Shown: one piece after another, positions 13,483 to 53,422 of the stretch
Position numbering within the stretch: position 1 is the first letter of the stretch
Layout: every line of letters starts with the position of its first letter
IMG/VR virus record: IMGVR_UViG_3300043411_002794
Span: 128,195 to 192,194 of that record
Length of the DNA: 64,000 bases
From: a virus
Direction: 5' to 3' (one strand)
The notes under the pieces: generated by a model
Database searches by the model: none
What the model was told of the DNA's origin: nothing
The model's input: only the letters and a program-made list of their open reading frames with translations
Position numbers and translations under genes: made by a program

Positions 13483-13495
13483 GGAATCCTCTTGA

Positions 13496-19852: not shown

Positions 19853-22447
19853 TCAACGGGCGTGATTGTGCAGTGAAACTCGTTGTGCTGTCAACGGGAA
19901 GTCGTGTGAAGGGTTCGGAATACTTTGCAAGAACGCGAGTTGGTAGAGGCAGTACTGCTTCGCCAACTCTGCAGCCGGTCCGCCGACTGCAGCAAGTTTT
20001 TCGGCCTGCTGCACATCACCTCGCTGGATCCGCTCGTTGCGGAAAGCAGCCAGGTGCAAGCGCCGCGTGAAATGCGGCTCCGCCAAGGAAATGGCGGAAG
20101 CCTGTTTTTCGGCCCAAAAATGCAGATCCTGAGTCGCCGACGGGGCCGGCGAGTAGGGATTTGTTTGGAGCATGCTCGGCAGGTTTTGATCCTGCGTCAT
20201 CCGCGTGAAGGCGCACGGCAAGTAGCACGTGACGACGTCCGCCACGGCGGCCGCTTGCTTCTCGTCGTAGTCGGTGACGAGCCGCACGAAATCGCGCGGC
20301 GTCAGCATGCAGCGGATGTCGGCCAAGGCACGGAGCACTTGAGCAAATTTTTCACGGCCGCCGGGCGGCATGGCGATCGGCGGCTGCACGCTGGCGGCGA
20401 ACGCTAATTTCGCGTTCTCGGCGGACGTGGTTTGTTCCAGGTCGGCCATCCGGAAGGCCAGCTTCAGGAGCTCGGCCGTCTTGGCGGGCAGCTCCTGCTC
20501 GATCATGAGGGTGTACGGGACCGTCAGACCCAAGGCTTCCGCCAACTCGGCGCCGGAGACGACGTGCCCGGCTGAAGCGGCCTTTTGCAGGACGCCGGAA
20601 ACGTAGGCAATGCGATCGGCGGGCCGGAAAACGTGGCTGATGTCGAAGAAGGTCGGCTCGGTGTTGTCGGCATGCAGTTGGTGCGTGTCGCCGTCAACCT
20701 GTACCGTCCGGCCGATGTTCTTGCTGAGGCCGCCTGCCTTGCAGAGACCGCCGTCAGCGACGTCGTGGCAGTACTGGTTACGCGTCGGAGCTTGGTTGCC
20801 GCAGTACGAGCAAACATCGAAGGGTACGCGGCAGTTATGCACGGCTAGGCCGAACGCCGTAAAGCTCTCATCTTCTTCGACGGAAATGTCGTAAACGGGC
20901 GTGCGTTCGACGACCGTGGTTACAGCCTTGACCGGGATCGCCAAGTAGTCACCGGTGATGAACACCGTTGTTTTGCCGGTCTGCGTCGCGCGTACCGCCG
21001 CCTTGGAGCGTCCGGCAAACATGCCGGAGAACCGATTGGAGACGTTGATCGTGTACTCGATTCCGTCGCCGGTCCGCAGCAGGCCGTGCGGTAGGTCGCT
21101 CGTGTGATCGATACGATAGACGGACGCCGGGATACCGATCGACGCAAGCAGCATCTGCAGTTCGATGGAAAGCCCGCGAGAGCACGTACTCCAATGGAGT
21201 CCTTTCCCGTCTTGCCAACCGTCGCCGTTGAACCAGGCGGCAACGAACTCCAGCTTGATGTCAGCCGTCGCGTCGTAGATTTCCTGCGGAATGACCTTGT
21301 TGCGGACGCCGCAACCGACTGCGGCAGTGATCGTCGACGTCAGCGGCTTGTCGTACACCATGACGTTGATCGCTTCGTCCGATGCCGAATGCGGATTTTC
21401 GCTGATCGACGCAGTCGTCAACTGCGGCAGTTCTTCAGGCAACGCGTCGGCCTTGTTGCACGTGTAGCAGAGGTAGCCGTCGCCGGTTCGGGAGCCTTCG
21501 GCGACGTAGTACCCGAGTAGGCGGGCCCGCTTGACGTCGGTCGTAGCGCTGCCGTCGCCGCGATAGATCGGCATCAACAACAAATCGCCGGACGCGAGTT
21601 CGCCGCACGGAAGCCAGCGAGCGCTGGCGTGCAACTGGTCGCGATATTTTTTCCGGAAATTGCGGCTGAAGCCGCTACGGTCCGCCGAGCGGAGCCCATT
21701 ACGCGACTTTGATCGCGGGATGTCTTTCCACCGACCGACGTAGAACTCGTGATCCGGCGTAAATTCCAGGACCTGCCGGCCGTAATACTCCGTTTCGATG
21801 CGTACGAAGCTCGGCTTCTCTCGCTGCATTGCCGCGTAGACCGGACGGTAGCGTCCGCGATGCGTGAGGACCTCGTCGCCAGGTACGATCGCCTCCACCG
21901 GAGTAAAGCCGCGACGGAGTTTGACGAGCGTACCGGCCAGCGCACACGCCATCGAGACGGCGATATCGTCGCCACGGGCCAGCTTTTCCATTTCACGATC
22001 GGCGAGCAGGCCACCATTGCGTTCGGCGGCTTCTTTGGTCGCATTGAGGGCGCAGATCAGCTCCACGCGGCTCATCGGCTCGTGGTAGGCCGAGAGCTTC
22101 ACGATGCCGTAGCTCTTGGACGGATCTTTGTTGAGGTGGTCGCGGTAGAAGCGGCCGTATTTCACGAACGTCGGATGCGTCCGTCGCAGAGCGGCTTCAC
22201 GGAAACCGTCGCCGTTACGGTTCATGCCGAACTTTTCGGTCGAACCGACGGCCAACAGGTGGATCAGCTCTTCGCCGGGATCTCGCGGGATCTTGTCGAG
22301 CTCGTAAAGGAACTGCGCACCGGCACGCTTCTCGAGTAACGAGCGATCGTTCCCGATAAGACGGCCGCGACTGCCGCGCTTGATCAGCGTCGCGACGACG
22401 TCACCGAACTCTTGGGAACCCGGCGTGATGATTTTCAGAATGCTCAT
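19853..22447 (-). CDS. Prohead maturation protease (Ser, assemblin/HK97-type) with intein and CxxC zinc motif
   Basis: RDHLNKD His motif; the spliced junction reads VSMA-CRVPFDVCSYCGN; located upstream of scaffold and MCP. Confidence 0.7.
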   Translation of the reverse strand: MSILKIITPGSQEFGDVVATLIKRGSRGRLIGNDRSLLEKRAGAQFLYELDKIPRDPGEELIHLLAVGSTEKFGMNRNGDGFREAALRRTHPTFVKYGRFYRDHLNKDPSKSYGIVKLSAYHEPMSRVELICALNATKEAAERNGGLLADREMEKLARGDDIAVSMACALAGTLVKLRRGFTPVEAIVPGDEVLTHRGRYRPVYAAMQREKPSFVRIETEYYGRQVLEFTPDHEFYVGRWKDIPRSKSRNGLRSADRSGFSRNFRKKYRDQLHASARWLPCGELASGDLLLMPIYRGDGSATTDVKRARLLGYYVAEGSRTGDGYLCYTCNKADALPEELPQLTTASISENPHSASDEAINVMVYDKPLTSTITAAVGCGVRNKVIPQEIYDATADIKLEFVAAWFNGDGWQDGKGLHWSTCSRGLSIELQMLLASIGIPASVYRIDHTSDLPHGLLRTGDGIEYTINVSNRFSGMFAGRSKAAVRATQTGKTTVFITGDYLAIPVKAVTTVVERTPVYDISVEEDESFTAFGLAVHNCRVPFDVCSYCGNQAPTRNQYCHDVADGGLCKAGGLSKNIGRTVQVDGDTHQLHADNTEPTFFDISHVFRPADRIAYVSGVLQKAASAGHVVSGAELAEALGLTVPYTLMIEQELPAKTAELLKLAFRMADLEQTTSAENAKLAFAASVQPPIAMPPGGREKFAQVLRALADIRCMLTPRDFVRLVTDYDEKQAAAVADVVTCYLPCAFTRMTQDQNLPSMLQTNPYSPAPSATQDLHFWAEKQASAISLAEPHFTRRLHLAAFRNERIQRGDVQQAEKLAAVGGPAAELAKQYCLYQLAFLQSIPNPSHDFPLTAQRVSLHNHAR
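20834..21946 (-). mobile_element. Intein (371 aa) with LAGLIDADG homing endonuclease
   Basis: Block A CALAGTLV; block G AVHN followed by +1 Cys; LAGLIDADG-like LLGYYVAEG and FVAAWFNGDG. Confidence 0.92.
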
Positions 22448-25991: not shown

Positions 25992-28571
25992 TTAGTTTCC
26001 TGCGATCGGAGCCAGATCCACTTCGCCCGAGGACTCTTCGGGGTACGGTTCGACGGACTTCTGCTTGAGGAAGATCACGACGTCGCCGAGACCTTCGAAC
26101 GAATTGCGAAGTGCGTCTTCCAGCTCCGGCATGTCTTGCTTACCGAACCGCTCGGCGAACCGATCGCCGTGCCAGTAGAACATGAACAAGATCCGGCCCA
26201 GGCTATCAAGGCCTTTAGCAAGCGGACCCATGTAACGATCGATCATCGTATCGTCACGGACCGCCTTGAGCATCGAGCCGATGGCCGACGCGTCGAAGAC
26301 TTCCGTCTGGTCGCTGCCGCCGGCTTGTTGCATGGTTCCGGCATCTTGCGGGCCGATCGGTTTGTCGTACTTCGGGTTCGGGTTGTAGACCTGCGGATCC
26401 GTGAGCCAGCCTTGCAGCCCCGGGACTTCGCTGATTTGGGTGTCCGAGTAGCGCGTGCGGGCGCTATCATGCATGAAATTGCCGCTTTCCGGCTGCGGCT
26501 CGTTGTAAGGCGGCGAGCCGACCGACGAGTCCGTCAGATACGGCGAATTGCCCTGCTGGGCGTAGCCGTACTTCACGTGGAACGAGAAGGCACTGCGGTG
26601 CTGGGCCCGGCCCATCAGCTCGCGGGCTTCTTTCTCCCGGAAGCCGTGATCACGCACCAGGTGCACCAACGCGTCACGGTGATGCAGCGAGCGTTCGTTG
26701 ACGGTGACTGTCGGGCCGTCGACCTTGATGCTCATGAGCGGGAATTCGTTCGCCAGTGCGACCTTCAGTTGCTTCGGCGTACCGAGTTCGAACGCTTCCT
26801 TGGTCGTCTTCTCCGCCTCGGAGTGCGGCTTGAAGTTCTGCGTGAACATGTGCATCTGCACGTCGACGAGATTGCCCGGGCTGATCGGCGGCTTTTTGCT
26901 GGCGCCGTCGAGCGGACCGCTGACGTCCACGTCGTTGCTGTCGCTGCTGCGGACAAGGTCGTATCGCGAGGATTCGACCGTCAGCAGCTTGAAGCCCTTC
27001 GGGACGTACATGTCGCCGCGCTGGGACGTGATCTTCGTGCCCTGCTTGGCGTCGAGGTGGATCCGTTGCCCGTCGCGGTACGAACAGTACGAATCGTCGG
27101 ACCATTCCGGCGAAACGCGCGGACCGCCCGTGTTGAACTGGCGGTCGACGTACGTATCGAAATCGACGTCGTAGCACTTATCGTTTTCATCGAGCCCGAG
27201 TTCGCCGCGGACGCGGAACGGAACCGTAGCGTCGCCCTCAGGCCCGATCAGGATGTAGCGGGTGTAACCCTTGCTCAGCGTGCCCGGCTCCGACAGCGAC
27301 TCGAACCACGACTTGAATTCGCTCTTGTCGTATTCTTTGCCGACCCAGACGGCCGCCGTCGCGCAGTTGATCCAGTCCTTACCGCCGCCGTCGAGACGGA
27401 CGACGGTGCAACCGCCCAGCCGCTTATCCGGCCCGGCACCGTGGACCACCACCAAGCACTTCTCGAACTTGTTCGGTTTGACGAGCACGTCGAACAGCCC
27501 GGTTTCGCTGGGGTTTTGCAGGCGTTGTTCAACCTGCAGGCTGTACGCGACCGAGACTTCCTCGGCCTTCCGCTCGTCTTTGATCAGCAGCTTGTCGCGG
27601 GCCAGTCGTTCAGCCTCTTCATCCGAGATCCCGGCCGGCCGCACGGGATTACTCGAGCTGTCGTAGGTCATGATCTGCAACGCACCGGTTTTAATCGGGT
27701 GCGGGATCGCTTCTTCGGCCAACAGGGAGCCGGTCTTGATGCGGAGCGGCTCCTTGACCGGCGTCAGGATGCTGCGGGTGCGGGCACGGGCGCCGGCCAG
27801 CTTGATCGCTTCGTTGATCACGCCGAGACCGTGGAACCGATCGAACGACTGACCGATCTCCGGATAGTCTTGGAACGTCTCCACCAAGCGGCCGAGCATT
27901 TGCAGCCCAGCTTGCTTGAGAAACGTCGGCAAATGCAGATTGGCGTGCAGCTTCTTGAACTCGGCGTCGATGTCGGTCGTGGCAGCGCGGGCCAGCGCGG
28001 GCATCGCCTCGGCCATTTCTTCGGCAAACGAGCCTTGCTTGAGCGACGGCGAATTGCTGAGCCGGCTGAGGTCCGGCGTCAACATACCGAGCAACGACGA
28101 GTTACGGCCGACGCCGGAGCCCATGATATTGGGCTTCTTGTTGAGAATGTCGTTGACCCAGTTTTCCTGCAGCGGCACGAACACGTCCTGATTTTTCAGG
28201 TACAAAAGCTCATGGCCTTTGAGCGTGCCGTTGAGGAAGAACACCGGGGCCAGCAGGAGGCTGCTGCCGACGCGGAAACCGAAGACACCGATCGCTTTGT
28301 TATTGTCTTCGTTGCGATCGAGCAGCTGGAAGCCAATTTCGTGGTCCAGCAACGTCGGGGCAGAGTCCCGCAGGTACGCATGAGCGAGATTGCTGAAGGC
28401 CTGTTCGAACGGAACGTCGTTACCAGCCTGACTGGCACTAGCGGTCTTAGCGATCGCCAGCTCCCCGTGAGGGATCGCGAACGTCGCCATCTTCGTCAAC
28501 CAGAAACGAACTGCAGGCGATTGAGCCTTACGCATGTCGTGCTCCATCCATGGAACAAGGTCCGCGCTCAT
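25992..28571 (-). CDS. Large hypothetical virion protein
   Basis: 859 aa clean ORF; KTAS, KQAG, KLAG motifs at segment boundaries. Confidence 0.8.
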   Translation of the reverse strand: MSADLVPWMEHDMRKAQSPAVRFWLTKMATFAIPHGELAIAKTASASQAGNDVPFEQAFSNLAHAYLRDSAPTLLDHEIGFQLLDRNEDNNKAIGVFGFRVGSSLLLAPVFFLNGTLKGHELLYLKNQDVFVPLQENWVNDILNKKPNIMGSGVGRNSSLLGMLTPDLSRLSNSPSLKQGSFAEEMAEAMPALARAATTDIDAEFKKLHANLHLPTFLKQAGLQMLGRLVETFQDYPEIGQSFDRFHGLGVINEAIKLAGARARTRSILTPVKEPLRIKTGSLLAEEAIPHPIKTGALQIMTYDSSSNPVRPAGISDEEAERLARDKLLIKDERKAEEVSVAYSLQVEQRLQNPSETGLFDVLVKPNKFEKCLVVVHGAGPDKRLGGCTVVRLDGGGKDWINCATAAVWVGKEYDKSEFKSWFESLSEPGTLSKGYTRYILIGPEGDATVPFRVRGELGLDENDKCYDVDFDTYVDRQFNTGGPRVSPEWSDDSYCSYRDGQRIHLDAKQGTKITSQRGDMYVPKGFKLLTVESSRYDLVRSSDSNDVDVSGPLDGASKKPPISPGNLVDVQMHMFTQNFKPHSEAEKTTKEAFELGTPKQLKVALANEFPLMSIKVDGPTVTVNERSLHHRDALVHLVRDHGFREKEARELMGRAQHRSAFSFHVKYGYAQQGNSPYLTDSSVGSPPYNEPQPESGNFMHDSARTRYSDTQISEVPGLQGWLTDPQVYNPNPKYDKPIGPQDAGTMQQAGGSDQTEVFDASAIGSMLKAVRDDTMIDRYMGPLAKGLDSLGRILFMFYWHGDRFAERFGKQDMPELEDALRNSFEGLGDVVIFLKQKSVEPYPEESSGEVDLAPIAGN

Positions 28572-28630: not shown

Positions 28631-29089
28631 TCACCCGCCCGGGGTTTGTGACGCCGCCGCGGCTTGCTGGCCAAAATCCTTCGCGGACGGGCCGTCAAAC
28701 AGCGGAGCCATCGTATTTTTACCACGAACGAACCCGGCCATCCCGGCAATTGCAGGCAGTCCGCCGCTTCGCAAGACGCCGCCCATCGGCATCAGCGCAT
28801 GCAGCAATTGCGGGGCCGCCTTCTGTAAAGCCGGCATAACCGAGGACATCAAACCGGCCTGCTGCAGCTGCGGCGCGACGGCCTTACCGGCGTCGGAGAC
28901 GGCGTTGACGCCCTTGTTCAACCACTGCAAACCAGTGTCCGCCACGTCACGAAAACTCCAGCCGCCGGACGGTGCCGGGGTTGCTGGTGCGGGCGGCGGA
29001 GACGCAGGCGATGCCGCGGGCGCAATGCTCGGTGTCTTGGCAATCGGCTGCGATAGCGGCTGAATTCCAGGCGTCTCCATAGTTACCAT
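28631..29089 (-). CDS. Pro/Ala-rich hypothetical protein
   Basis: 152 aa; overlaps the RNAP beta'C stop by 7 nt. Confidence 0.55.
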   Translation of the reverse strand: MVTMETPGIQPLSQPIAKTPSIAPAASPASPPPAPATPAPSGGWSFRDVADTGLQWLNKGVNAVSDAGKAVAPQLQQAGLMSSVMPALQKAAPQLLHALMPMGGVLRSGGLPAIAGMAGFVRGKNTMAPLFDGPSAKDFGQQAAAASQTPGG

Positions 29090-30954
29090 CCCTTAGTCGG
29101 GCCGGTGAGCCCGAAGTCTTTTCCTTCCGCAAGCGACGGCACGAAGCTGGTTCCGGCGGTGTCCGAAACGTCTCCGCGATGCACGGCCTTGAGGAGTCCC
29201 TTTTGCTGATACGAACCAAGTCCGCGAACCATCCAGTCCTGATCCTGGGAAACGCTGGCCATCCCGCGAATCATCTCCGGCGAGAACGGCGGCGGATCCT
29301 TATGCGCATGCACGGCATTCACGCCGAATTGCTGCAGCTCGTCGAGCATCTTCTTACCGATCTTCGTCCCGATCGTGTAGTGCAACACGGGTTTTTCGAG
29401 GTAATGCCCGACCACGGTGTTCGGCGGGGCCACGTAGTAACCGGGCCGCGGTTCCCAGTGTTTTTCTATGCTGGAGTACGGCACAACGTCGCCTGGTGCC
29501 CAGTCGCCAAGCTCGTCGTCGAGGCGGACGTGATTGATGAGGCCGCGCGCCACCAGCTCGATATTCCGTCGGTTTCCGTAGGTACTGCTGTTTTTGAGCG
29601 TATCCCGAAATGAATTGACGAAGTAGCGGCGACCTTCGCCAATCCCTTTGTGATGCACGATTTCAGCCGGGTTCGGCACGCCTTCAGACAGCACGTCCCC
29701 GGCTTCAACCATGTCGCCTTTCTTGACGCGAAGCGGTAGCTCGGCGGGCACGTAATGCTTGGCGTCGCCGACGATCACGAAATGCCCGCCCTGCGGGGCC
29801 GGATTGATCGCGTGGACCTTACCTTCGAGTTGTGCGTGCGTTGCCCCGTTCGGAAAGACCTCGGGCACTTGCACCAGGGCGTTGATTGCCTTGAAGCCGC
29901 CGACGGCACCCGCCGTGGCACCAGCGACGCCGCCGGAGTGCTTAGAGCTGATCGTGGCTTGTGTGACCGGTTCTGAGAGGGCGTTGGCGGCGGCAATCCC
30001 GACATAATCGCCCAACGGCGACAGGCCTTGGCGTTCCCGGTACCCGGCGTCGCGCGCATACACGCCGCCGTCCGACGGACCGCCGACGGCCGCCGAGCGA
30101 ACCAAAATGCGGCTGATACCTGCTGCCTGCAGATCTTTCAGCACGCGGGGCGTTAAATGCGTATTTCGCGGGTAATTGGCGGCCGGATGCGCCAGTAAGG
30201 CGCCTTCATTATCGGCATCGTTGACGTCCACAGGGTAACCGCGGGGCGACGCTTCATCGTACGGATCGTCGTCATCGTCGGCCGTGACCAGGAGTCGATG
30301 GGCCGCCTGCATGAGCTGTTTGGCGAAGAACCCGGCGTCCGACGTACCGGCCTTCAAGTCGATCACGCCTTTGCGCGTACCGAAGGCACCGGCAAAGTAT
30401 TCGGCCGGCGTCAGGCCTTCGCTGTAGCTGTGCATCACCGGAATCGGGATCGGTCGTCCCCGGTGGTCTTCGTAGAGCAGGTCGGCCCCGCGCAGGCTGT
30501 TCAGCGACGAAGCGTTGCCGCGACCGGCCCCGGCCAGCTGACTCGCCAGCGGGTTATCTTCGGCCTGGCTCTCCGCCAACACGTCGTCCACGAGCTTCGG
30601 CCGCACCTTCTGGATGGCGGCTACGATCGCATCGTTCCGGGCATCGCCGTCGAGCTCCGGGTTGTTCAGGATCTTCTGGATCGCTGGTTCGAGCTGCTGT
30701 TTGGCGAGCCGCGCGGACAGCGCGGGGCGAATTGCCCGCAGACCGAAAGAGTTGCCGTTGCTGAGATAGGCGGCCCGGCTGCCGACTTTCGAGAGCCGGA
30801 ACATGATGTCCCGGTACTTCTCCGGATGCTTCTCGGCGATCAGGTCGCCGAGGTCCACTATGGTCTTCTTGTTGACGACCCGGTCGTAGTCCCTGATGTC
30901 TTCGGGCAGCACCGAATTAACTAAGAGCTGACCTAAAGTCGTTTCAAGGGGCAT
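29083..30954 (-). CDS. rpoC: RNA polymerase beta' C-terminal half (bridge helix, trigger loop)
   Basis: TTLGQLLVN; GAGRGN; bridge helix YSEGLTPAEYFAGAFGTRKG...AGFFAKQL; trigger loop GIAAANALSEPVTQATISSKHSGG. Confidence 0.92.
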   Translation of the reverse strand: MPLETTLGQLLVNSVLPEDIRDYDRVVNKKTIVDLGDLIAEKHPEKYRDIMFRLSKVGSRAAYLSNGNSFGLRAIRPALSARLAKQQLEPAIQKILNNPELDGDARNDAIVAAIQKVRPKLVDDVLAESQAEDNPLASQLAGAGRGNASSLNSLRGADLLYEDHRGRPIPIPVMHSYSEGLTPAEYFAGAFGTRKGVIDLKAGTSDAGFFAKQLMQAAHRLLVTADDDDDPYDEASPRGYPVDVNDADNEGALLAHPAANYPRNTHLTPRVLKDLQAAGISRILVRSAAVGGPSDGGVYARDAGYRERQGLSPLGDYVGIAAANALSEPVTQATISSKHSGGVAGATAGAVGGFKAINALVQVPEVFPNGATHAQLEGKVHAINPAPQGGHFVIVGDAKHYVPAELPLRVKKGDMVEAGDVLSEGVPNPAEIVHHKGIGEGRRYFVNSFRDTLKNSSTYGNRRNIELVARGLINHVRLDDELGDWAPGDVVPYSSIEKHWEPRPGYYVAPPNTVVGHYLEKPVLHYTIGTKIGKKMLDELQQFGVNAVHAHKDPPPFSPEMIRGMASVSQDQDWMVRGLGSYQQKGLLKAVHRGDVSDTAGTSFVPSLAEGKDFGLTGPTKGW

Positions 30955-30961
30955 GTTTCGC

Positions 30962-31174
30962 TCATTTGCGCTGCACTAACGGCAGGTGATATTCTTTGGC
31001 GGTTTTCGCAAAAGTGGGATCGCCGAAGTTGGCACAGATATAGCTTCGCGGACCAACCTCCAAAACGAAGTTGATCAGATTACCGAAGTCGTCGTACACC
31101 AGGACATTGCCGGTAGTTTTGGTCTCTATCGGCTTGAGGCCGTCACGCAGTTCCACTTGCATTGGCATGAGCAC
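30962..31174 (-). CDS. Small hypothetical protein between the RNAP halves
   Basis: 70 aa ORF ending 7 nt before the beta'C start. Confidence 0.55.
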   Translation of the reverse strand: MLMPMQVELRDGLKPIETKTTGNVLVYDDFGNLINFVLEVGPRSYICANFGDPTFAKTAKEYHLPLVQRK

Positions 31175-31946
31175 GCTGCCGAGATTGGAGGAGACGCATC
31201 ACCGTCGCCGCCTTGGCAATCCCTGAATCGGGATCGTCGGCCATTGCGTGCGGACTGATACGCGAAACCGGATCGCCGATGTAGGAGTCGGCCTGCTTCT
31301 CATCTTCGAGCTGATGCTGCTCGTCGAGAATGCGCTGGGCAAGCATGGTACCGAACGCTGCTGCCTTGGACGCCGGGGCGGCACCTTGCATCGGTTCGAC
31401 GGGTGAGATGGCGCCCGTATCGCCGCCGGCAGCCGGTTGTTGTACCGGACCTGGATCCATGGGACCGCCGGGGACTGCAGTCTCCGCGACCGGGGCGGAC
31501 GTCATACCGGGCGGCAATACGAGCACGCCAGGCGGCAGGGTGATGCCGTGGTGATTCATGATCGCCGTCACTTGCTGCTGGATGTTGTACAACCGCGTGT
31601 CCAACATCTGCATCATTTGTTCGGGCTTGAGCTTTTGCTGGGCGGGAGCAGCCGGGGCCGCCGGAGCGCCGCCAGGCATCGAGCCGGGCAGCGGCTGAGC
31701 CGGTGCCGCCGGAGCAGGCGGAGGCATCCCACCACCGGCCATTGCAGCCGGGTCGCCAGGTGGGGGCGGAGGCATTCCACCAGCCATCGCAGCCGGGTCA
31801 CCGGGAGGCGGCATTCCGCCTGCAGCCGCTGGGTCGCCGCCCGGAGGCGGAGCCATTCCGCCGCCCGGAGGTACGAACGCACGCTTTTCCGGATTACTCA
31901 ACCGGTGCAGCGCCATCGTCATCAGTGTGTCGTCGATGCCTTCCAT
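31143..31946 (-). CDS. Pro/Gly-rich disordered protein with KxA motifs
   Basis: Start MEGIDD with GGAGG RBS; imperfect PPPGDPAAMAGGM repeats; KRAF, KAAA, KQAD. Confidence 0.7.
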   Translation of the reverse strand: MEGIDDTLMTMALHRLSNPEKRAFVPPGGGMAPPPGGDPAAAGGMPPPGDPAAMAGGMPPPPPGDPAAMAGGGMPPPAPAAPAQPLPGSMPGGAPAAPAAPAQQKLKPEQMMQMLDTRLYNIQQQVTAIMNHHGITLPPGVLVLPPGMTSAPVAETAVPGGPMDPGPVQQPAAGGDTGAISPVEPMQGAAPASKAAAFGTMLAQRILDEQHQLEDEKQADSYIGDPVSRISPHAMADDPDSGIAKAATVMRLLQSRQRAHANASGTA

Positions 31947-32004
31947 GGAACACTTCCTCCTGTGGGCGTAGTTGTACCGCGTCGCTGTAACTGACGGAAG
32001 CTCA

Positions 32005-35000
32005 CTAGGGACGCATGATCTTAATCCGTCGCGAGCCGTCGATTTCACCGCGTTCGTAAGCCCGTAATGCGTCCGCCGGGGTTTCGAACACCGTCGGGCG
32101 GTTGTGGGTATCAATTCGCGACGTCAAATGATACATGCCGCCGACGTATTCCTGACTCGGCAGGTAATGCGTACGGAATTTGGCGACGCTGAACAGGTTC
32201 TTGCTGGGGAGCATTTTCTCGGCCATTTCTTTGGCCGCTTCATCGTCTGCGGGCAAATGGAACTGCATGGCGTCACCGTCGAAGTCGGCGTTAAAGCCGC
32301 CGACCACGAGCGGCGAGATCTGCATCGTGTGCCCCTTCATGATCTTCGGCCAGAAGGCCATCACGCCATAGCGGTGCAACACCGGGGCGCGATCGATCAT
32401 CACCGGCCGCTGACCCATCTCCGACACTAGCGCTTCACGCGCAACCGGATGCTTGTTTTTAACGAGCTGGGCCGCTTGCAGTCGCGGCATCCCGCGGCGA
32501 ACCAGGTGCCGCACGGTGTACGGCGTGTAAAGATCCCAGGCCTTTTCCTCCGGAAGCCCGACGCTGTCCATGTCCAGATCCGGGTTGGGCGTAATCGTCG
32601 CTCGCCCGACAAGATCGGTGGTCGTGCTGAGCAACTTGCGCTGAATCATGCCGAACTTCGGACTCGAGCCGAAGATCTGCTTGAGTAGACCTTTGACGCC
32701 CCGCTCCTGATTCTTCGGATGCTGCGGCTCACCGAGGCCCGACACCGCCTTCATCGCGTCGTACGTCGCCAGCCGTTCGTCACCGACGTCATCAACCTTG
32801 TCGGACATCTGCTTGAGCACGTCGTTGGCGTCGAACAATTCTTTGTAAAGATAGTTGGCATCGGCCACGAGCGGCAGCTTCTTCTGACCCATCGTCGTCA
32901 CGGGGCGGAAGCGGGGCGGCAGCACCGGCACTTTACCCATGATCCAGTCTTTGGGGTGCACGCCGGTGCGGGCGGCCGCCGTCAGGAAGCCGAATTTGCG
33001 AATGGCTTCATCACGCTGGGTCTTCCGCGCGCTCTTGAGCGACAAACGGGTTTGTTCGATCTCGCGATCGAGATCGATGTTGGACAAGGCCTTGACGATT
33101 CCCTGCGGACCGCTGACGCCGTGCAGCGACTCACGGCCGGCCAGTACGTCCCGCATCTTGTTCTCAGTCAGCCCGAGAACGCGGCGAATCGGCTCTTCCA
33201 TCACAGGGTTCGGCATCGGCTCATGCAGCCGAATAGCGGACCACCGCGTGCCTTCGTGGCCGCCGGTGATAGCCTCATCAAATAGACCGCCCCGCTTCGG
33301 CTTGAGGCCGTTCTTCCAGTCCACCGTCTCGGTGTTTTGGATCTCGCGGCCGCCGGTCAGCTCGTCGACCTTAGCCGGACTCATAGCCATCAGCTGCGTC
33401 CGTGTCCCGTCTTTAACTGGATGGATCCCGGCGCCCTGCAGCATCCCAATGAACTTTTCGTAGGTCTTCGGGATTCGCGGCGTCGTCGGCTGATAGCCGG
33501 ACATGAACTGCGACCAGAACTCAGGATTCGCCTGGCCCCGAATCATCTTCGCTTCACGAATGACCTTCCCGGCGCCGTGCGACAACAGGGCACCGAGGTT
33601 GAGCATGCCGATCCGCTTAGCGCCGCTCTCGCCGCCCTTGGCCGGAGCACCTTCGCTGGTGTAGCCGCCGATGCCGCGGCCCTGGGCCTTGGCTTCCGAC
33701 GTGTGATGCAGCTTCATGAACCAACGATTCCCGGCAAAGACGTTCGGGATCTTCTTGCCGGTCTCCGGATCGATAACCGAATCCAGGTCGCTGAGGTTGT
33801 GCTTTCGCAGTTCGCTCATCGCAAACTCGACGGCATCGGTCGCCGTTCGGAACGGCACCTTATACGGCTTGCCGGTGACGGCCGCCACTTTGCCGAGAGC
33901 CGCCTCGATCATTTGGGCGGCGTTCACGCGGCTGATGACGCCGAGCGGATTGGTGAGGATCTCGTAGGGTTTGCCTTGTGCGTCAGTCGGCATCTCGTCG
34001 TCGGGAACGATCATCGAAATGACGCCCTTGTCGCCGTAGCGACCACTGAGCTTGTCGCCGACTTCAGATGGAACAGTGGCCTTCACGACGACTGTGGCGC
34101 CTTTGTCGGTGTTGACGACGTCAGTTACAGTTCCCGGGGCATGATGGTCCCAGGTGATGCTGCTATCAATGACCTCCGGTCGTCGACCACGATGGATCGC
34201 TCCATGTGTCCGTTCGCGTTCTGTGATACTAAGTACCAGGGGATCGCCGTAACGGATCTCTGTTCCTGGTTTGACGACTCCGTCGTCGGTGAACTGGTCG
34301 AGGACGGCACGATGAAATCTTCCAGGAAAGTTTGACAGGAAGGCATTCTTGCCGCGGCGGACGTCGGGTCCCCATTCGGCGACATGCTGATAGGCATGCT
34401 CGGAAGATAATCGCTTGGCAGCGCTCTCGCTGATGACGTTGGCGTCTTCAAAATTGGCTCCGCGGAAGGGCAAATATGCGACGCGCAGGTTTTTACCCAG
34501 CGCAGTAACGCCCTGACCGTCCGTGAAATTGGAGCGCGCCAAAAGCTGCCCCGGCTGAACCACGTCGCCCGGTTTGACGACAGCGGTCTGCGTGATGAGG
34601 GTGTTGTGCACGATGAGCCCGTGGTCGACACCGAACACCTCCGATTCAGCAACGCAGAAATCGTAAACATGGGCTTCGTGCGGGATTGCCTCCACGGCGA
34701 CTACCGTATCCCACATAACGTCGGACGCACCCCACTTGCCGAAGTTGCCGGTACCTGCGACCAGCCGATGCTTGGCCACAGCGCCCTTACCAGCGGTCTT
34801 GTAAACATAATTGGACGACTGCGGCAGTTCGGCATACAGCGACTTTCGGGCAAGCTTAGACACGATCGGCACCATGTCGTACGGCGACGCCCGGTACGCC
34901 CGACGAAGCAGTTCGCGGAAAAGCTGCTCGCGATCGTCGTAGAAGAACCAGCGGGAGAGCCGTGAGAGGTGGCTGCTGATGATGCGGAAGCCGTACGCGT

Positions 35001-37656
35001 CGTTCCAGTTATCGTTGAGGTGTTGCCGCGGGGCGTCGAACAGCGTCGAAAAAATCTGCAGCGAGGCGGCCAGCGTCACCAGTCCGTCGCGAAGTCGGCG
35101 GGACGTGCTAACGGCCTGGACTTGAATCGCCCCGCCGGCGTCTGCCCAAAGGCACCCGTCTCCGGCGAAATAGCCGCTCAGCAGGCAACTCCGCGCGTCA
35201 CTTTGCCACGTGAGCACCTCCGGCGAAATAAACTTACCGCCGGAGGTGCAGCCGAAATTCGTCAGGAGCCATGCGCGTAGTTCGTGCGACGTAAAGCAAA
35301 CCTCACCGCCGACGCGATAAGGCGACGTCCCGAGCCGCTGCAGTAATTCCAGGATCTGTGCTGCGCGAATATCGGGCTCAACCGCAATTTTTACGAGCCC
35401 TGCCTGCTCTGGCAGGTGTCCTTCGGCAAGATATAGGCCCGCAAGCGAGGCGAGATCAGTAGATACTTGTGCGTCGCCGTCGCACGGCACCATGGCGACT
35501 GGCAGCCGCGTGCGATTGATTACCACGTCAGCAGGAAAGATTGGCGACAGGTTCCCGGCTGCATCCAGCGTCACCAAACTATGATCGATCGTAATGTCGA
35601 CTGCACGGCCGGACGCAGTCCGAACACGAACGAGCCGCTTATCGTTGTCGTGCCGAATAAATCCGGTAATTCGGCACCACTTTGATTTTTTCGTAAGCGG
35701 GTCGACAGAAAGTACGTCGTCGCCGGCGTGCGCGACATACTCAGAAATTGGACCTTCCCAGTACCCACCGTTACGCCGAATCAGTACGCGAGTACGCCCG
35801 GTAACGCTTTTACGGTTGTACGGCATGTTGTCATAGAGATCGACTCGCTTCTTGCTGCCGTCGGCATGCTTGAGCACGATGCCGTTACGATCGACACTGA
35901 CGACGCTGGCCGGTTGATCGGCGTGCACGGCGCCCATGTGCTTGGCATATTCTTCTTCGAAGCTGCGTTCGGCGTTCTCGGGCATCGCACTCTGTACGAG
36001 CGGAGCTTCGCCATCCTGCAACGGCAACGCTTGGGTCACCATTCGCGCGGCCATCACCGCCCGCTGGCCCTTGACCATCGACTTGAGCGGAATGAGGTTC
36101 GCCAACGGCGAGAACGTGTCTTCGATCGCCGGCAGCACGTAGTCGACCTTGTCGGCTCGTTCGTACCGCATTTTGCCGCCGGCGAGCACGTTGACGAACG
36201 TGTTGCCGCCGTACTGCACTGGACCCGTTTTCCGTCCGTCGCCGCCCCAGAACTTTTTGGCGGGCGGCTCCGGTCCGTTTGGGTTCACCGGTGCTTGCGG
36301 CACGGGCTCGAAAGCAATGACGGAATCGGCCAGATCCCGGGCAGACTTGTATTCTGTCTGCCCAGATTTCGCGTTCTGCAGCGGGAAGTACAGAAAGCCG
36401 TCGTCGCCTTTGACGGCTTTGCGGGCCAGCCGCATGTCGACGCCCACTTTTCCGGATTCCGGAGTCCGCAAAAAGTCAACGAAGCCCAGGTGCGTCGGCT
36501 GCACGGCCCGCGATTCCTCGGGCACGGCGTCGAGGCTGCTGATACCGCCTTCGCCCATACGGGTCAGGCGGCTTTGCTGGTCGAAGATTTCGGCCGGATT
36601 GATTTCTTCAATCGGAGCGCCGAGGCCACTACCGATGATCGCGGACTGAATCGCACGATCGAAGAAGCCGGGTTGCACGCCGTCAAGATTCTGGCGGGCC
36701 GATACCTTCCAGAGCAGCTTGCGCAACTCGCCGCCGCTCTTTTCCAGCCGCTCCGCCAGCAGGTTCTCCGGCCCGAGCACATGCTGATAGGCCATGTGGT
36801 CGCGGTCGTCGGGCTCCGCTTCGCCGCGATTGATATCCAGCAGCTTCTTGGTGGTCGCCAGTATCGTCGGCAGGTCCAGCTTGGTCGACTTGTGCTTCAG
36901 CGTGCGATTGGTGACGAAGTCGTCGAGCTCCATACCGCCGAATGATTCAGCAACGGCCTTTGCCATTACCTCCGGGTCCGCTCCTTCGACCCGGTTGCGG
37001 GCGACGCGGTCGTACAACTTGCGGATCACCGTGTTGTCGGCCTTGGCGGCGTTGATGCCGGCCAGGTCGTTGCCCCAGGTGTCGCGGAGCTGCTGATCGG
37101 TGGCGCCCATTGCCCGCAGCAACGGATAGAGCGGCATGTTGGCCTGCGCCATGTTCAGTTTGAACACGCCCGACTCCGGATCCATGAAGATCCGGTGCCC
37201 GCGGCCCTTGCCTGGCAGCACGTTGACGTGTGCTTCCAGCTCGCCGTTCTGCTTCTTACGGGCGAAAATCCCCGGTGCGAGCCGGAGCTGGTGGGCCAAC
37301 GTATATCCCACGCCGCGGTTAATAAACAAACCGTCGTCGATCAGGTACGGGACATTTGCCAGCGTCGCCCGTCGCTCCGCAATCGATTTCCCGGTCGCGT
37401 TGTCGCTCAGTTGCCAGGTACCGCGTAAACGTCGTGTTAGCGACGTACCGCTCAACACGGCCCGCTTCACGTCCTGCTTGCTGTACTCTTCCGGGCCCTC
37501 GTAGGCGACGTCGGCGAGCTGCAGCGTATGTCGCTGGTTCTGGACCGGCTTCAGTGCCGTGGCTGCCTTGAAGACGTTGTCGAAGATCAGCTTGCGCGTC
37601 GTGGGCGCATCGCCGAAGTTTCGGAACGACGGGGCGACTGGCAGTAATTCGGACAT
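32005..37656 (-). CDS. rpoBC: Fused RNA polymerase beta + beta' N-terminal half, with intein
   Basis: Beta motifs RTPESGKVG, GANFED, GDKLSGRYGDKGVIS, NPLGVISR, MKLHH; beta' motifs VPVLPPRFRP, RAPVLHR and catalytic NADFDGD (32272..32292). Confidence 0.96.
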   Translation of the reverse strand: MSELLPVAPSFRNFGDAPTTRKLIFDNVFKAATALKPVQNQRHTLQLADVAYEGPEEYSKQDVKRAVLSGTSLTRRLRGTWQLSDNATGKSIAERRATLANVPYLIDDGLFINRGVGYTLAHQLRLAPGIFARKKQNGELEAHVNVLPGKGRGHRIFMDPESGVFKLNMAQANMPLYPLLRAMGATDQQLRDTWGNDLAGINAAKADNTVIRKLYDRVARNRVEGADPEVMAKAVAESFGGMELDDFVTNRTLKHKSTKLDLPTILATTKKLLDINRGEAEPDDRDHMAYQHVLGPENLLAERLEKSGGELRKLLWKVSARQNLDGVQPGFFDRAIQSAIIGSGLGAPIEEINPAEIFDQQSRLTRMGEGGISSLDAVPEESRAVQPTHLGFVDFLRTPESGKVGVDMRLARKAVKGDDGFLYFPLQNAKSGQTEYKSARDLADSVIAFEPVPQAPVNPNGPEPPAKKFWGGDGRKTGPVQYGGNTFVNVLAGGKMRYERADKVDYVLPAIEDTFSPLANLIPLKSMVKGQRAVMAARMVTQALPLQDGEAPLVQSAMPENAERSFEEEYAKHMGAVHADQPASVVSVDRNGIVLKHADGSKKRVDLYDNMPYNRKSVTGRTRVLIRRNGGYWEGPISEYVAHAGDDVLSVDPLTKKSKWCRITGFIRHDNDKRLVRVRTASGRAVDITIDHSLVTLDAAGNLSPIFPADVVINRTRLPVAMVPCDGDAQVSTDLASLAGLYLAEGHLPEQAGLVKIAVEPDIRAAQILELLQRLGTSPYRVGGEVCFTSHELRAWLLTNFGCTSGGKFISPEVLTWQSDARSCLLSGYFAGDGCLWADAGGAIQVQAVSTSRRLRDGLVTLAASLQIFSTLFDAPRQHLNDNWNDAYGFRIISSHLSRLSRWFFYDDREQLFRELLRRAYRASPYDMVPIVSKLARKSLYAELPQSSNYVYKTAGKGAVAKHRLVAGTGNFGKWGASDVMWDTVVAVEAIPHEAHVYDFCVAESEVFGVDHGLIVHNTLITQTAVVKPGDVVQPGQLLARSNFTDGQGVTALGKNLRVAYLPFRGANFEDANVISESAAKRLSSEHAYQHVAEWGPDVRRGKNAFLSNFPGRFHRAVLDQFTDDGVVKPGTEIRYGDPLVLSITERERTHGAIHRGRRPEVIDSSITWDHHAPGTVTDVVNTDKGATVVVKATVPSEVGDKLSGRYGDKGVISMIVPDDEMPTDAQGKPYEILTNPLGVISRVNAAQMIEAALGKVAAVTGKPYKVPFRTATDAVEFAMSELRKHNLSDLDSVIDPETGKKIPNVFAGNRWFMKLHHTSEAKAQGRGIGGYTSEGAPAKGGESGAKRIGMLNLGALLSHGAGKVIREAKMIRGQANPEFWSQFMSGYQPTTPRIPKTYEKFIGMLQGAGIHPVKDGTRTQLMAMSPAKVDELTGGREIQNTETVDWKNGLKPKRGGLFDEAITGGHEGTRWSAIRLHEPMPNPVMEEPIRRVLGLTENKMRDVLAGRESLHGVSGPQGIVKALSNIDLDREIEQTRLSLKSARKTQRDEAIRKFGFLTAAARTGVHPKDWIMGKVPVLPPRFRPVTTMGQKKLPLVADANYLYKELFDANDVLKQMSDKVDDVGDERLATYDAMKAVSGLGEPQHPKNQERGVKGLLKQIFGSSPKFGMIQRKLLSTTTDLVGRATITPNPDLDMDSVGLPEEKAWDLYTPYTVRHLVRRGMPRLQAAQLVKNKHPVAREALVSEMGQRPVMIDRAPVLHRYGVMAFWPKIMKGHTMQISPLVVGGFNADFDGDAMQFHLPADDEAAKEMAEKMLPSKNLFSVAKFRTHYLPSQEYVGGMYHLTSRIDTHNRPTVFETPADALRAYERGEIDGSRRIKIMRP
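34603..35808 (-). mobile_element. Intein (402 aa) with LAGLIDADG endonuclease, in RNAP beta
   Basis: Starts SVTGRTRV (Ser1); ends IVHN followed by +1 Thr; LAGLYLAEG and LSGYFAGDG motifs; flanks rejoin as YNRK-TLITQ. Confidence 0.9.
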
Positions 37657-44530: not shown

Positions 44531-45157
44531 TTAAGCGGGCGGCCGTAGCGTACGCGATAACGCCGACTTTACCAACGGAGAAGGACGTGCCAGGGCTGCC
44601 TTGAGCGCCGGAGAGACATTTTCCCAGGCCAGCGGACACGGATCCAGGTGCCGCACGAAGTCGAGCAGTGAGGCGGCCTTGGAAGTCGGATTGCTTCGCA
44701 AAACGCCGACTTTCCGCACGGCGAAGGTGATGTGAAATTCGTACGTGTCGTTGGGCAGACTGCTCAGCCCGTACGTCCGTCGCAATGCCTTGAGCTCGGG
44801 ACTCTGCACTTCGATAAACCAGACGCGGCTAACACCATCCCAAGTACCCGGCACCACGGTCTTCACCGGCCCGAGCGTGTAGTGAAAGTCCTTGCCGCGT
44901 TCGGTGATCTTGTCGATGCCGCCGATCTGCTGCAGCTCTTCGGGACGCATCACGCTGATATGCGCGTTGTACGTCTCCGCGTCGCCGCTGGTCGGCAGCG
45001 AGATCCCGGGTTCATTGAGCGCCTTGAACGCAGCCCGACCAATGTCGTTTGGGGCCTGGAGCAGCAGCCAGCCGCTCTTAGAGGCGTACAGCTTACCGGC
45101 CAGCCCATACGACAACTCCGGCGCGCCCGCCGCCTTAATTGGCTCGGAGTGAATCAA
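44531..45157 (-). CDS. 2H phosphoesterase (LigT/Acb1-like fold)
   Basis: Two HxS/T motifs, HISV and HITF; TTG start at 45157 with AAGGAG RBS at 7-nt spacing. Confidence 0.8.
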   Translation of the reverse strand: MIHSEPIKAAGAPELSYGLAGKLYASKSGWLLLQAPNDIGRAAFKALNEPGISLPTSGDAETYNAHISVMRPEELQQIGGIDKITERGKDFHYTLGPVKTVVPGTWDGVSRVWFIEVQSPELKALRRTYGLSSLPNDTYEFHITFAVRKVGVLRSNPTSKAASLLDFVRHLDPCPLAWENVSPALKAALARPSPLVKSALSRTLRPPA

Positions 45158-45701
45158 AGATCGGCTCCTTCGGGACGTTGTCAGGCCGAATGAACGCAAC
45201 AAACTCCGGCGCACCGTCGACCATGAACCCGCGGCAAAAAATGGACACGTGCAACGACGTGCCGTCTTTCTTTTTGGCGTCGCCGTCAAAGTGCGATTTC
45301 ACTTCGCGCGTCTGTGCCGTAAATTTCTGCGGCGCCTTTGCCATGTATTCGACGTGTGTTTTCCGAAACGCGTCGGCGACCAGTAACGAAGACGGTTTGC
45401 CGAGCAACTCGGCAGGCTTATAGCCGAGCATATCGGCCAGCGTCTTATTCACCGCGGTAATGTTGCCGCGACTATCACACACCACGGCACCGACGGGCGA
45501 GCTGTCCATAACTATCCCGAAACGACGCTGCTGCATTTTCAGCAATTCTTCGTACTCGTCGACCTTGGCCTTGAGTTCGTTCTCTCGCGACAGTTGTGCG
45601 TCGCGGACGTACGAAAAACGGTAGCCGTTGACGATGATGAGTACGATCATCACCACGAGCATACCGCCGGCTAGTAAAAACCGCGGACTACGCTTGTTCA
45701 T
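45135..45701 (-). CDS. Membrane-anchored single PAS-domain protein (FixL-like, possibly heme-binding)
   Basis: TM helix and coiled coil, then PAS (DSRGNITAVNKTLADMLGYKPAELLGK...KKDGTSLHVSI); His in FRKTHVEYM at the FixL ligand position; no output domain. Confidence 0.85.
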   Translation of the reverse strand: MNKRSPRFLLAGGMLVVMIVLIIVNGYRFSYVRDAQLSRENELKAKVDEYEELLKMQQRRFGIVMDSSPVGAVVCDSRGNITAVNKTLADMLGYKPAELLGKPSSLLVADAFRKTHVEYMAKAPQKFTAQTREVKSHFDGDAKKKDGTSLHVSIFCRGFMVDGAPEFVAFIRPDNVPKEPIFDSLRAN

Positions 45702-46344: not shown

Positions 46345-47493
46345 CTACTCCCAGGCAGAAAGGGTTTCACAGACATTGGATACGGCCGCCGAAGTCGTAA
46401 AGGGAGAGATCGCGAGATAGATGCCATGCTGCTGTACGTGGCGGGCGTTCGTAAGCGGTGACAGGTTCCGAATACCAAATCGCTGCATAAACGGCTGCAT
46501 CGCTAAATTTCCGGCAACAATCGGCCTCGTGGCAATCTCAGCCAGCTGGAAATGATTCACCAATGCGTGCCGGCGTGCAACGCCACCTTCTGCAAGCACC
46601 AGCGGATACGCGAACCAAGAATGACGACCTTCGCCGATTTTATATCGTAAAAATCCATCCGGCGTGGCTTGACGAATCTGCGTGGCAATGTTGAACCGAC
46701 GCGTCTGCCACTCCTCAACAAAGGGTAGTTGTTTAAGGCCCAGCTCCCCTTGAATCTCCATCGGTCGGACGTTGTAGCCGAGCGTCGGGAACAAGAACCG
46801 TGGATCCAATTCCGGATGGCGATCCGCCCAAAACTTCATCCGCTCCGCCCCGAGATCCCGGATCCAGCCATGCGCGCGCTGCATCACGAGTTCTTCGTAC
46901 AGCTCCGGTGAATTCGTCGTCACCATCCCGCCCTCGATCGTGACGAGGTGGTGGCTATAGAAGAAGCTGAACGTACCCATGTCGCAGTCGGAGCCGACAT
47001 GCCGACCTGTGCCGAACGTATCGCGACCTGCCGGGCCGTAGTGCGTGCCGAGTGCTTCACAGCAGTCCTCGATCACATACTTGAACGTGCCTGTGTCCAC
47101 TTGGGGCGGCTGCCCGAGCAAATGGCAGTTGAACAGCACATCGCACCGCTCGTCGACGTGCTGGCGAAGCACCAGCGTCGAGAGATCTACGTCGAGCAGA
47201 ATCGGCTTCAACCCGAGCTGCACGACCGGGGCGATCGTGGTACTCCAGTTGACGGCCGGAATACCGACCGTCTCGATCTCCGGGTGCAGCGTCTTGAGTG
47301 CGCTGATCGACAACAGGTTGGCGGACGAGCCGCTGTTGACCATAACGGCGTACTCGGTACCGACATATCGGGCAAACTCGGTCTCAAACGCTTTCACGAA
47401 CCGGCCCATCGACAACTCGCCGGAACGAATGCACTCCAGTTGCTGCAGCGTTTCCGGGCCGAAGGGCGGGTTAGGTACTAGCTGGTCCTTCAT
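46345..47493 (-). CDS. colD: DegT/DnrJ-family PLP/PMP enzyme, ColD-like NDP-4-keto-6-deoxyhexose 3-dehydratase
   Basis: VNSGSSAN, IEDCCEALG, SFFYSHHLVTIEGG (His in place of the Schiff-base Lys), AHGWIR. Confidence 0.75.
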   Translation of the reverse strand: MKDQLVPNPPFGPETLQQLECIRSGELSMGRFVKAFETEFARYVGTEYAVMVNSGSSANLLSISALKTLHPEIETVGIPAVNWSTTIAPVVQLGLKPILLDVDLSTLVLRQHVDERCDVLFNCHLLGQPPQVDTGTFKYVIEDCCEALGTHYGPAGRDTFGTGRHVGSDCDMGTFSFFYSHHLVTIEGGMVTTNSPELYEELVMQRAHGWIRDLGAERMKFWADRHPELDPRFLFPTLGYNVRPMEIQGELGLKQLPFVEEWQTRRFNIATQIRQATPDGFLRYKIGEGRHSWFAYPLVLAEGGVARRHALVNHFQLAEIATRPIVAGNLAMQPFMQRFGIRNLSPLTNARHVQQHGIYLAISPFTTSAAVSNVCETLSAWE

Positions 47494-51741: not shown

Positions 51742-52305
51742 TTACCCTTTGTCTTTGATCAGCCACGCCACGATCTGTCGCATCGAGTCGCTGGTCACGT
51801 ACACGTCGAAGCCGAGCTCTTTCAGATCGGAGATCTTCGGCTGTGCGACGTACGCTTGATGTTTGTTGATCTTTTCAATCGCCGCCTGCTCGGGGCCGAC
51901 GTGATGCATCTCATCGGCCGACGAGATGAACACGGCCTTCTTCGCCACGCGGACGAGCTGCTCCAACGCCCGGCGAGTGTCCGGCACATGTTCGAGCACT
52001 TCGCAGCATTGCACGAAGTCGAACTCGTTGGCGGCGTAATGCTTGTCGAGCTCGCAAACATCGACGCCGATCTTCGTCGTCCAGTCGGGCGGCATATCCC
52101 GAATCCAGTGGATGTCACATGCCTCCTTGCGGACGATCCCGGCCGAGCTCTCCCAGTACTGCAGGTCGAACACGCCGCCATGCCCGGCGCCGACATCCAG
52201 GATCGAGTACCGCGGGACGTTTTTGAACACGCCCTTCGGTCCGTTGATCTTGGACTCGGGATACGGGTAATAATCGAACGCAGGAACGTCGGTGTAGATG
52301 GGCAT
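51742..52305 (-). CDS. Class I SAM methyltransferase
   Basis: ILDVGAGHGG, FDFVQCCEVLEHV; start MPIYTD via TGATG overlap. Confidence 0.85.
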   Translation of the reverse strand: MPIYTDVPAFDYYPYPESKINGPKGVFKNVPRYSILDVGAGHGGVFDLQYWESSAGIVRKEACDIHWIRDMPPDWTTKIGVDVCELDKHYAANEFDFVQCCEVLEHVPDTRRALEQLVRVAKKAVFISSADEMHHVGPEQAAIEKINKHQAYVAQPKISDLKELGFDVYVTSDSMRQIVAWLIKDKG

Positions 52306-53300: not shown

Positions 53301-53366
53301 AACATCCCTGCATGTGAGTTGAGAACGTGATAAGCCTAGTCGCGTCGCCAAAATGTTGCAACTTGG

Positions 53367-53378
53367 CTGATAGCTAAA
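53367..53378 (-). promoter_or_regulatory. CTGATAGCTAAA motif (copy 2)
   Basis: Directly downstream of the terminator, as at 12767. Confidence 0.4.
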
Positions 53379-53414: not shown

Positions 53415-53422
53415 CCAATTAC

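Follow-up and report, generated by a model that had tools for sequence, protein, structure and literature searches.

In the final 64 kb of the 192,194-bp virus record IMGVR_UViG_3300043411_002794 (positions 128,195 to 192,194, hereafter the window), the beta subunit of a cellular-type RNA polymerase runs into the N-terminal part of beta' (beta'N) within a single open reading frame (ORF), and the C-terminal part of beta' (beta'C) is encoded by a second gene. The record is linear according to IMG/VR, and the CheckV completeness estimate for the phage genome is 93%. This raises the question if such an architecture is genuine and, if so, what kind of enzyme it specifies and where the phage employs it. 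We found that the layout is real and conserved; it recurs throughout a very large group of phages of which little has been described, and is very common in metagenomes. We consider it probable that the two genes specify, in two polypeptides, the catalytic core of a bacterial-type multisubunit RNA polymerase of the phage's own, which would mature by protein splicing, use a sigma factor and be packaged into the virion. A preliminary description of the window had captured the fused and split layout exactly, and had overlooked an intein within beta, two genes between the polymerase genes and a sigma gene just beyond the window.

The long ORF (32005..37656, minus strand, 1883 aa) passes from beta into beta' without a stop, at precisely the coordinates proposed earlier. 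Its Pfam domains are arranged in the order Rpb2_3 and Rpb2_6 (beta), then Rpb1_1 and Rpb1_2 (beta'), and the short ORF for beta'C (29083..30954, minus strand, 623 aa) contains Rpb1_5. NCBIfam assigns rpoB to residues 1017-1411 of the long protein and rpoC to residues 1512-1881, the latter equivalent to model positions 159-534 of 1147; residues 3-481 of beta'C correspond to positions 548-1048 of the same model. From this coverage it follows that no substantial part of beta' has been lost between the two genes. The same domain picture is obtained with bacterial beta and beta' chains from the PDB.

For a closer view of the anatomy, we aligned the proteins of four fused phages with beta and beta' of Salmonella, Acinetobacter and Staphylococcus (MAFFT). 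The covalent junction comprises residues 1395-1432 (33361..33474, minus strand), a range that covers the approximate positions 33375-33450 given before. It consists of the beta C-terminal motif IPKTYEKF...GAGI followed by HPVKDG-TRTQL-MAMSPAKVDE: beta ends with ...GAGIHPVKDG, a link of five residues (TRTQL) follows, and beta' begins near E. coli residue 17. Vibrio phage D69 does not share the Met at the junction, so that a separate internal start for beta'N is unlikely. Further downstream, NADFDGD occupies residues 1789-1795 and YVGGMYHLT residues 1837-1845; the stop follows residue 1883, 38 residues past the latter motif and about 90 beyond the former. The remainder of beta' begins, as had been noticed, with the equivalent of the TTxGR motif, the N-terminus of beta'C reading MPLETTLGQ. 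In the alignment, the fusion ends opposite E. coli beta' ...VKVRI (about residue 553), beta'C starts opposite TTVGR (about residue 568), and the phage proteins lack the variable loop that separates the two.

The catalytic motifs are kept. In beta, GDKLSGRYGDKG and NFED align to E. coli residues 1060-1073 and 811-814, respectively, and NADFDGD is retained in beta'. Bridge helix and trigger loop are preserved in beta'C (P0002), in which the segments aligned with beta' 770-805 and 925-945 still have the key Gly, Arg and Lys residues and the His. The zinc-binding domain of beta' (four Cys, E. coli 70-88), whose place would be shortly after the junction, is gone, removed by a 32-residue deletion over E. 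coli beta' 68-99 in all four fused phages, and the proteobacterial inserts SI1, SI2 and SI3 are likewise absent from the four. Divergence is seen in the flap-tip region and in the rifampicin pocket; by alignment, the pocket carries the substitutions Q513A, D516E, H526Q, S531T and L533M, and the enzyme may well be insensitive to rifampicin.

The beta part is interrupted by a 402-aa element (residues 617-1018; 34603..35808, minus strand) that matches Pfam Intein_splicing (E=5.7e-11) and LAGLIDADG_3 (E=2.4e-7) as well as NCBIfam intein_Nterm. The intein hallmarks are Ser617 at position 1, a block B TIDH at residues 689-692, the terminal pair His1017-Asn1018 and Thr1019 at position +1; two LAGLIDADG motifs are located at residues 738-748 and 826-836 (35413..35445 and 35149..35181). 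The boundaries are defined by an exact 402-aa indel, as the intein-free relatives P0008, P0009, P0012 and P0017 read ...PYNRK|T(L/F)... across the site. The element is thus flanked by an N-extein comprising beta residues 1-616 and ending in ...PYNRK (35809..37656, minus strand) and by a C-extein (32005..34602, minus strand) that contains the C-terminal half of beta, the junction and beta'N, including, all on the minus strand, NFED (34444..34455), GDKxxGRxGxKG (34024..34059) and NADFDGD (32272..32292). Like class 1 LAGLIDADG inteins, the element shows all sequence hallmarks and interrupts a strongly conserved motif in an enzyme that is essential, and differs from them in its host gene, a phage polymerase fusion. 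Judged by its sequence, it qualifies as a class 1 intein with a LAGLIDADG endonuclease, for which splicing is predicted. The insertion site aligns to N762|T763 of Salmonella and E. coli beta (RSNQN|TCINQ), where the hybrid-binding domain begins; a location in rifampicin cluster III (residue 687) had been considered and was rejected on the basis of this alignment. The G+C content of the intein (0.595) is close to that of the exteins (0.60-0.62), so that composition gives no sign of a recent arrival.

Inteins are frequent in this family. Among the aligned relatives we found at least five insertion sites, including beta 565, 762, 1066 and 1106 and beta' 333 (E. coli numbering), and matches to cluster representatives that break at about query position 372-377 suggest a further site beside NADFDGD. 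The close relative P0006, whose exteins are 93% identical to those of the window, carries four inteins in 2948 aa, with the one at the window's site being 77% identical. Chains longer than 1700 aa occur in 14 of 120 close 90% clusters, and 97 of 111 apparently complete representatives of 50% clusters exceed 1600 aa, a figure that may lean towards long representatives. A second intein with a LAGLIDADG domain was found elsewhere in the window, at about residues 168-538 of the protein encoded by 19853..22447 (minus strand), a homologue of the virion protein gp222 of phage Arash, in which the flanks of the intein are contiguous.

The genome holds a single polymerase set. Neither alpha (PF01000, PF01193) nor omega (PF01192) had a match in the 192-kb genome at E<=1; matches were obtained in 14 of 14 control genomes. 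That the window lacks alpha and sigma genes had been stated before, and this is true for the window itself; no alpha homologue was found elsewhere in the genome either, whereas a sigma-70-family gene (245 aa; genome positions 124634-125371, minus strand) lies just 2.8 kb before the window start (128195). Its product matches Sigma70_r3 with 28.1 bits (Pfam cut-off 25.3) and RpoD_Cterm over residues 85-232 (E=3e-6); sigma region 2 (PF04542) was not detected in this protein. With a profile built from 38 of its homologues, all 34 PDB matches were sigma-70-family factors. The gene is conserved in the clade of fused phages; its protein is 28% identical to the sigma factor gp10 of Arash (E=4e-18), and homologues are encoded on contigs of 220272, 111888, 154385 and 77352 bp, the same sizes as contigs carrying the fused polymerase.

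According to our proposal, the 1883-aa precursor would most likely lose its 402-aa intein to yield a protein of 1481 aa, in which a compact beta devoid of SI1 and SI2 would be tethered by about five residues to the first ~460 residues of beta'. The tethered part of beta' would contribute the clamp helices together with the NADFDGD double-psi beta-barrel, without a zinc-binding domain, and the 623-aa beta'C would supply bridge helix, trigger loop and the remaining parts of clamp and jaw. Because no homologue of alpha or omega was found in the genome, the covalent tether probably takes over the assembly role of the cellular alpha dimer. Promoter recognition would probably be provided by the phage sigma-70-family protein. 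Since the polymerase genes share one co-directional block with head and tail genes, both proteins are probably made late and packaged in the capsid, and would enter the cell together with the DNA to allow early transcription that does not depend on the host. Being the only such set encoded by the phage, the enzyme may also act in transcription later on.

The location of the enzyme in the virion is suggested by homology to Arash, at 26-32% identity. Mass spectrometry of purified Arash particles yielded more spectra for gp206, the counterpart of the fused protein, than for any other protein (3516); gp216, the counterpart of beta'C, gave 1210 spectra, and the sigma factor gp10 was detected as well (PMC10585845). 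The virion-associated polymerase proposed in the preliminary description is thus supported by the detection of both polymerase proteins in Arash virions, and is suggested by homology for the phage of the window. The gene arrangement points in the same direction. The beta'C stop shares a 7-nt overlap with the start of a 152-aa ORF (28631..29089, minus strand), which connects the polymerase genes with the structural gene that lies downstream (25992..28571, minus strand), a homologue of the Arash virion protein gp218 and of a 796-aa gene of L006, a 220-kb relative. This is followed by the gp222 homologue and by a homologue of the 307-aa major capsid protein gp226 of Arash (16284..17234, minus strand), so that the window is syntenic with three Arash virion proteins, and by a tail-sheath-like gene (7865..10663, minus strand). 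The earlier statement that the polymerase is embedded in a virion module consequently fits the downstream side; upstream of the fusion there are no clear structural genes.

Several points weigh against our proposal. Experimental evidence for a place in the virion comes solely from Arash, a relative at the above degree of identity, whose authors noted that abundant non-structural proteins may carry over into particles; the 116 "virion" proteins reported for this phage include primase, helicases and ribonucleotide reductases (PMC10585845). The upstream flank in the window holds ORFs of no assigned function, which L006 shares, along with genes for a 2H phosphoesterase and for sugar-modifying enzymes. 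BLAST with the portal proteins of Arash and D69 found no counterpart in either the window or L006, and a portal gene beside the polymerase is therefore not a feature of the window's subclade. An alpha-like gene could reside in the missing ~7% of the genome or be too diverged for detection, and it is also conceivable that the phage enzyme uses the alpha subunit of its host. The sigma-like protein, for its part, could redirect the host polymerase instead.

Taken together, the first of these points amount to an alternative in which the polymerase is functional and not packaged, acting as an intracellular middle or late enzyme, with its detection in Arash particles being carry-over of an abundant protein. 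Apart from having been raised by the Arash paper itself, this interpretation would agree with the presence of one polymerase set, given that phiKZ-type phages have separate virion and non-virion enzymes (PMC7598289). We nevertheless regard it as unlikely, because gp206 ranks first by spectral count in Arash, with gp216 and sigma found alongside, and because in the window, Arash, D69 and L006 the polymerase genes are translationally coupled into a block with capsid and virion homologues.

Another alternative concerns the fate of the fused chain, which might be a precursor cut by a phage protease at or near the junction, so that the mature enzyme would have separate beta and beta'N subunits. Prohead proteases do process many head-associated phage proteins. 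The junction is short, however, and aligns directly to the C-terminus of beta and the N-terminus of beta', which are neighbours in cellular enzymes; natural fusions of full beta and beta' exist in Helicobacter and Wolbachia (NCBIfam models NF007172 and NF011417, both hit here), and the link sequence varies between subclades with no shared cleavage motif evident. Cleavage appears quite improbable to us, and we favour a covalently tethered beta-beta'N subunit in the mature polymerase.

How widespread is the fused layout? In a word-index search, the best 120 matches (at least 60% identity) all contained both PF00562 and PF00623; most were about 1460 aa long, and many were encoded on contigs of about 200 kb. 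When the 50%-cluster representatives were searched exhaustively with only beta'N as the query, 1806 proteins were returned at E<=1e-30. In 146 of the best 150 representatives, beta'N is preceded in the same protein by the C-terminal half of beta; in 144, no more than 15 residues follow beta'N. Unsplit beta' was not found among the best 120 longer relatives of beta'C. Many relatives of beta'C (P0126-P0243) are 1100-1900 aa long, with the beta'C part at the N-terminus and a variable Gln/Pro/Ala-rich extension of 500-1300 aa behind it; the extension has no match in the window, whose beta'C ends without one. Only four deposited phages match contiguously across the junction, namely Arash and Vibrio D69, D148 and D181, and these four cultured phages share the fused reading frame. 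Records such as OR844998.1, OR846602.1 and CAKLQH020000005.1, filed as phages of Staphylococcus, Enterococcus and Listeria or as "Acinetobacter phage MD-2021a", contain ordinary rplJL-rpoB-rpoC loci and look like host contigs rather than phage DNA. The preliminary description had remarked that novelty would be lowered if the architecture were standard in the closest relatives, and this is the case, for Arash and D69 as well as across a very large clade.

To place the enzyme, we inferred a tree from 30 concatenated beta+beta' rows (2067 columns, LG+C20+F+G4 by PMSF, quick search). Each sampled bacterial phylum was recovered, and the four fused phages (the window, L006, Arash and D69) group together with SH-aLRT 100, their long common branch lying outside all 25 bacteria. 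The beta' of Rhizobium phage RHph_Y65, unsplit and of mReC-like layout, falls between the two groups on its own very long branch and not with the fused clade. The very long phage branches and a compositional deviation call for caution in reading this tree, and as it has no archaeal outgroup it indicates that the phages are not nested in a sampled phylum rather than that they are deep-branching. Among bacterial rpoC, 599 stretches match the most conserved 190 residues at no more than 42% identity, with no phylum standing out. The phylogeny advocated in the preliminary description has thereby been carried out with 25 bacteria, the four fused phages and RHph_Y65; the claim of a distinct lineage is supported in the sense of a lineage outside all sampled bacteria.

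That the fusion is an artefact of assembly or a frameshift, or that the genes are recently captured or mis-binned cellular rpoB and rpoC, has nothing in its favour beyond the a priori possibility raised in the preliminary description and is of negligible probability: the fused frame is conserved across independent cluster representatives and cultured phages, which excludes an assembly error, and capture or mis-binning is contradicted by the low identity to any bacterial rpoC, by the position of the phage clade in the tree and by a G+C content of the polymerase genes that equals that of the surrounding phage DNA.

Among known systems, Arash (gp206 and gp216, 1525 and 606 aa) and Vibrio phage D69 (0261 and 0264, 1527 and 609 aa) have the same fused and split layout as the window. 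Arash, D69, D148 and D181 further share with it the deletion of the zinc-binding domain, a homologous sigma-70-family partner and adjoining head genes. These phages differ from the window in sequence (26-32% identity), in the absence of an intein and in having a portal gene directly upstream; the genes between the two polymerase genes, nine in Arash and two in D69, are different from those of the window. In the Arash paper, gp206 is annotated only as "beta subunit" and the fusion is not mentioned (PMC10585845).

The polymerases of phiKZ/AR9-type jumbo phages are multisubunit enzymes without alpha or omega, one of which is found in the virion (PMC7598289; PMC7824862), and their beta' was reported to be split after the catalytic double-psi beta-barrel (PMC7598289). 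The window's enzyme resembles them in the absence of alpha and omega and in the region where beta' is split. In the phiKZ/AR9 type, however, two or three polypeptides make up beta, a fusion with beta' never occurs, there are two paralogous sets, and sigma is lacking, whereas the window has an intact, fused beta, one set, a sigma-70-like gene and much clearer similarity to bacterial enzymes. The preliminary description had also pointed to the mReC phages (Weinheimer and Aylward 2020), which, like the window, are tailed and encode bacterial-type beta and beta' branching apart from cellular lineages. The mReC contigs tabulated in the available part of that source have separate beta (~920-1560 aa; at least 900) and beta' (~900-1370 aa; at least 899) subunits, unlike the window, and the capsid protein, where detected there (8 contigs), is of the T4 type (PF07068). 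The capsid homologue of the window gave no Pfam match at E<=0.01 and matches the Arash capsid protein. With its layout and capsid, the window thus stands apart from mReC, as far as the length tables with their separate full-length subunits tell. RHph_Y65 (Kleczkowskaviridae) has an unsplit beta' of 1127 aa, again unlike the window.

We did not find a beta-beta'N fusion described in the mReC paper, in the jumbo-phage reviews, in the Arash paper or in the wider literature (subscription journals lying outside this coverage). What is added here is the description of the layout and, most usefully, the missing zinc-binding domain, the intein and the lack of alpha and omega homologues together with a retained sigma; the layout itself is already present in deposited phages.

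In cellular organisms, the rpoBC genes of Helicobacter and Wolbachia join the C-terminus of beta to the N-terminus of beta' as in the window, with the difference that the whole of beta' is contained in the one chain. Cyanobacterial-type enzymes provide the counterpart, a split beta'. In a member of the Gastranaerophilales, a lineage of the Cyanobacteriota (L055), rpoC1 ends with ...ETTAGRIMFNETLRKSVLQ, about 15 residues past TTAGR, and is followed by rpoC2; beta is a separate gene. The cyanobacterial-type cut is thus located about 20 residues downstream of the phage cut in the same linker, the phage N-terminal half ending before TTLGQ. This pair supports the earlier claim that the split point differs from the cyanobacterial one, with the addition that both sites share a linker; it also replaces an offset of ~68 positions that we had derived from NCBIfam model coordinates. 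The first 140 residues of beta'C, used to search the PDB for cyanobacterial gamma, reached no gamma chains. To our knowledge, no cellular enzyme combines a beta-beta' fusion with a split beta'. As the splits of the fused phages and of the cyanobacterial type share this linker, and those of the phiKZ type and of Ralstonia phage RP13 fall in the same region, the linker looks like a recurrent permissive site. RP13 (L090) encodes a stand-alone beta'N of 517 aa that ends at this region and a 486-aa piece labelled "beta/beta'"; Vibrio phage Va2 (L091) has an unsplit subunit of 1192 aa.

We tentatively put forward the fused phages as a third architectural class, while conceding that the case falls somewhat short of even. 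It would be defined by a tethered beta-beta'N plus beta'C, by the absence of alpha, omega and the zinc-binding domain, by a phage sigma-70-type factor and by packaging in the virion; it would be widespread (the 1806 clusters mentioned above), have cultured members and constitute an exceptional hot spot for inteins. How the core assembles and finds promoters without an alpha platform is an open question for the phiKZ/AR9-type enzymes (PMC7598289). The present clade offers a simpler, more "bacterial" case, in which the sequences align well with E. coli RNA polymerase, a tether would stand in for alpha and a recognisable sigma is retained. Since cultured members such as Arash (grown on a laboratory strain of Salmonella Typhimurium) are at hand, the question of assembly and promoter recognition is directly testable. 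The clade is also big enough to serve as a marker for poorly described phages of about 200 kb, and with up to about five inteins per gene it lends itself to the study of how inteins home in phages.

In the vicinity of the polymerase genes, nearly all genes are on the minus strand, and the G+C content is about 61% throughout the genome. The gap between the upstream gene and the start of the fusion is 8 nt. Two genes lie between the fusion and beta'C. The first (31143..31946, minus strand), preceded by GGAGG, encodes a conserved Pro/Ala-rich protein of 267 aa to which no function is assigned; a Pfam scan of it gave no match, and a homologue is present at the same position in L006 (E=1e-16). The second is a small conserved ORF of 68 aa (30962..31168, minus strand) that stops a few nt ahead of the beta'C start and has weak homology to the 81-aa gene that L006 carries at this place (E=2e-6). 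The order fusion, Pro/Ala-rich gene, small ORF and beta'C is thus found in both genomes. A PHROGs scan of ten neighbouring proteins matched nothing useful, and the flanking ORFs were mostly without matches in a Pfam scan. The enzymes encoded upstream are a 2H-SAK phosphoesterase (44531..45289), a DegT-type aminotransferase (46345..47493), a GH130-like protein (52305..53534) and a GT4 glycosyltransferase (54972..56147), all on the minus strand.

Finally, we noticed an AT-rich 14-mer, GGTAATTAGAAACC, of which there are 11 exact copies genome-wide despite the G+C content of 61%. In the window, it occurs exactly at 25569, 41675 and 56169 and with one mismatch at 13495. An ATG follows within 26 nt in seven of the 11 copies, and within 5 nt in five of them, without a Shine-Dalgarno sequence. 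The motif is a candidate phage promoter or start site of leaderless mRNAs, possibly read by the phage polymerase.

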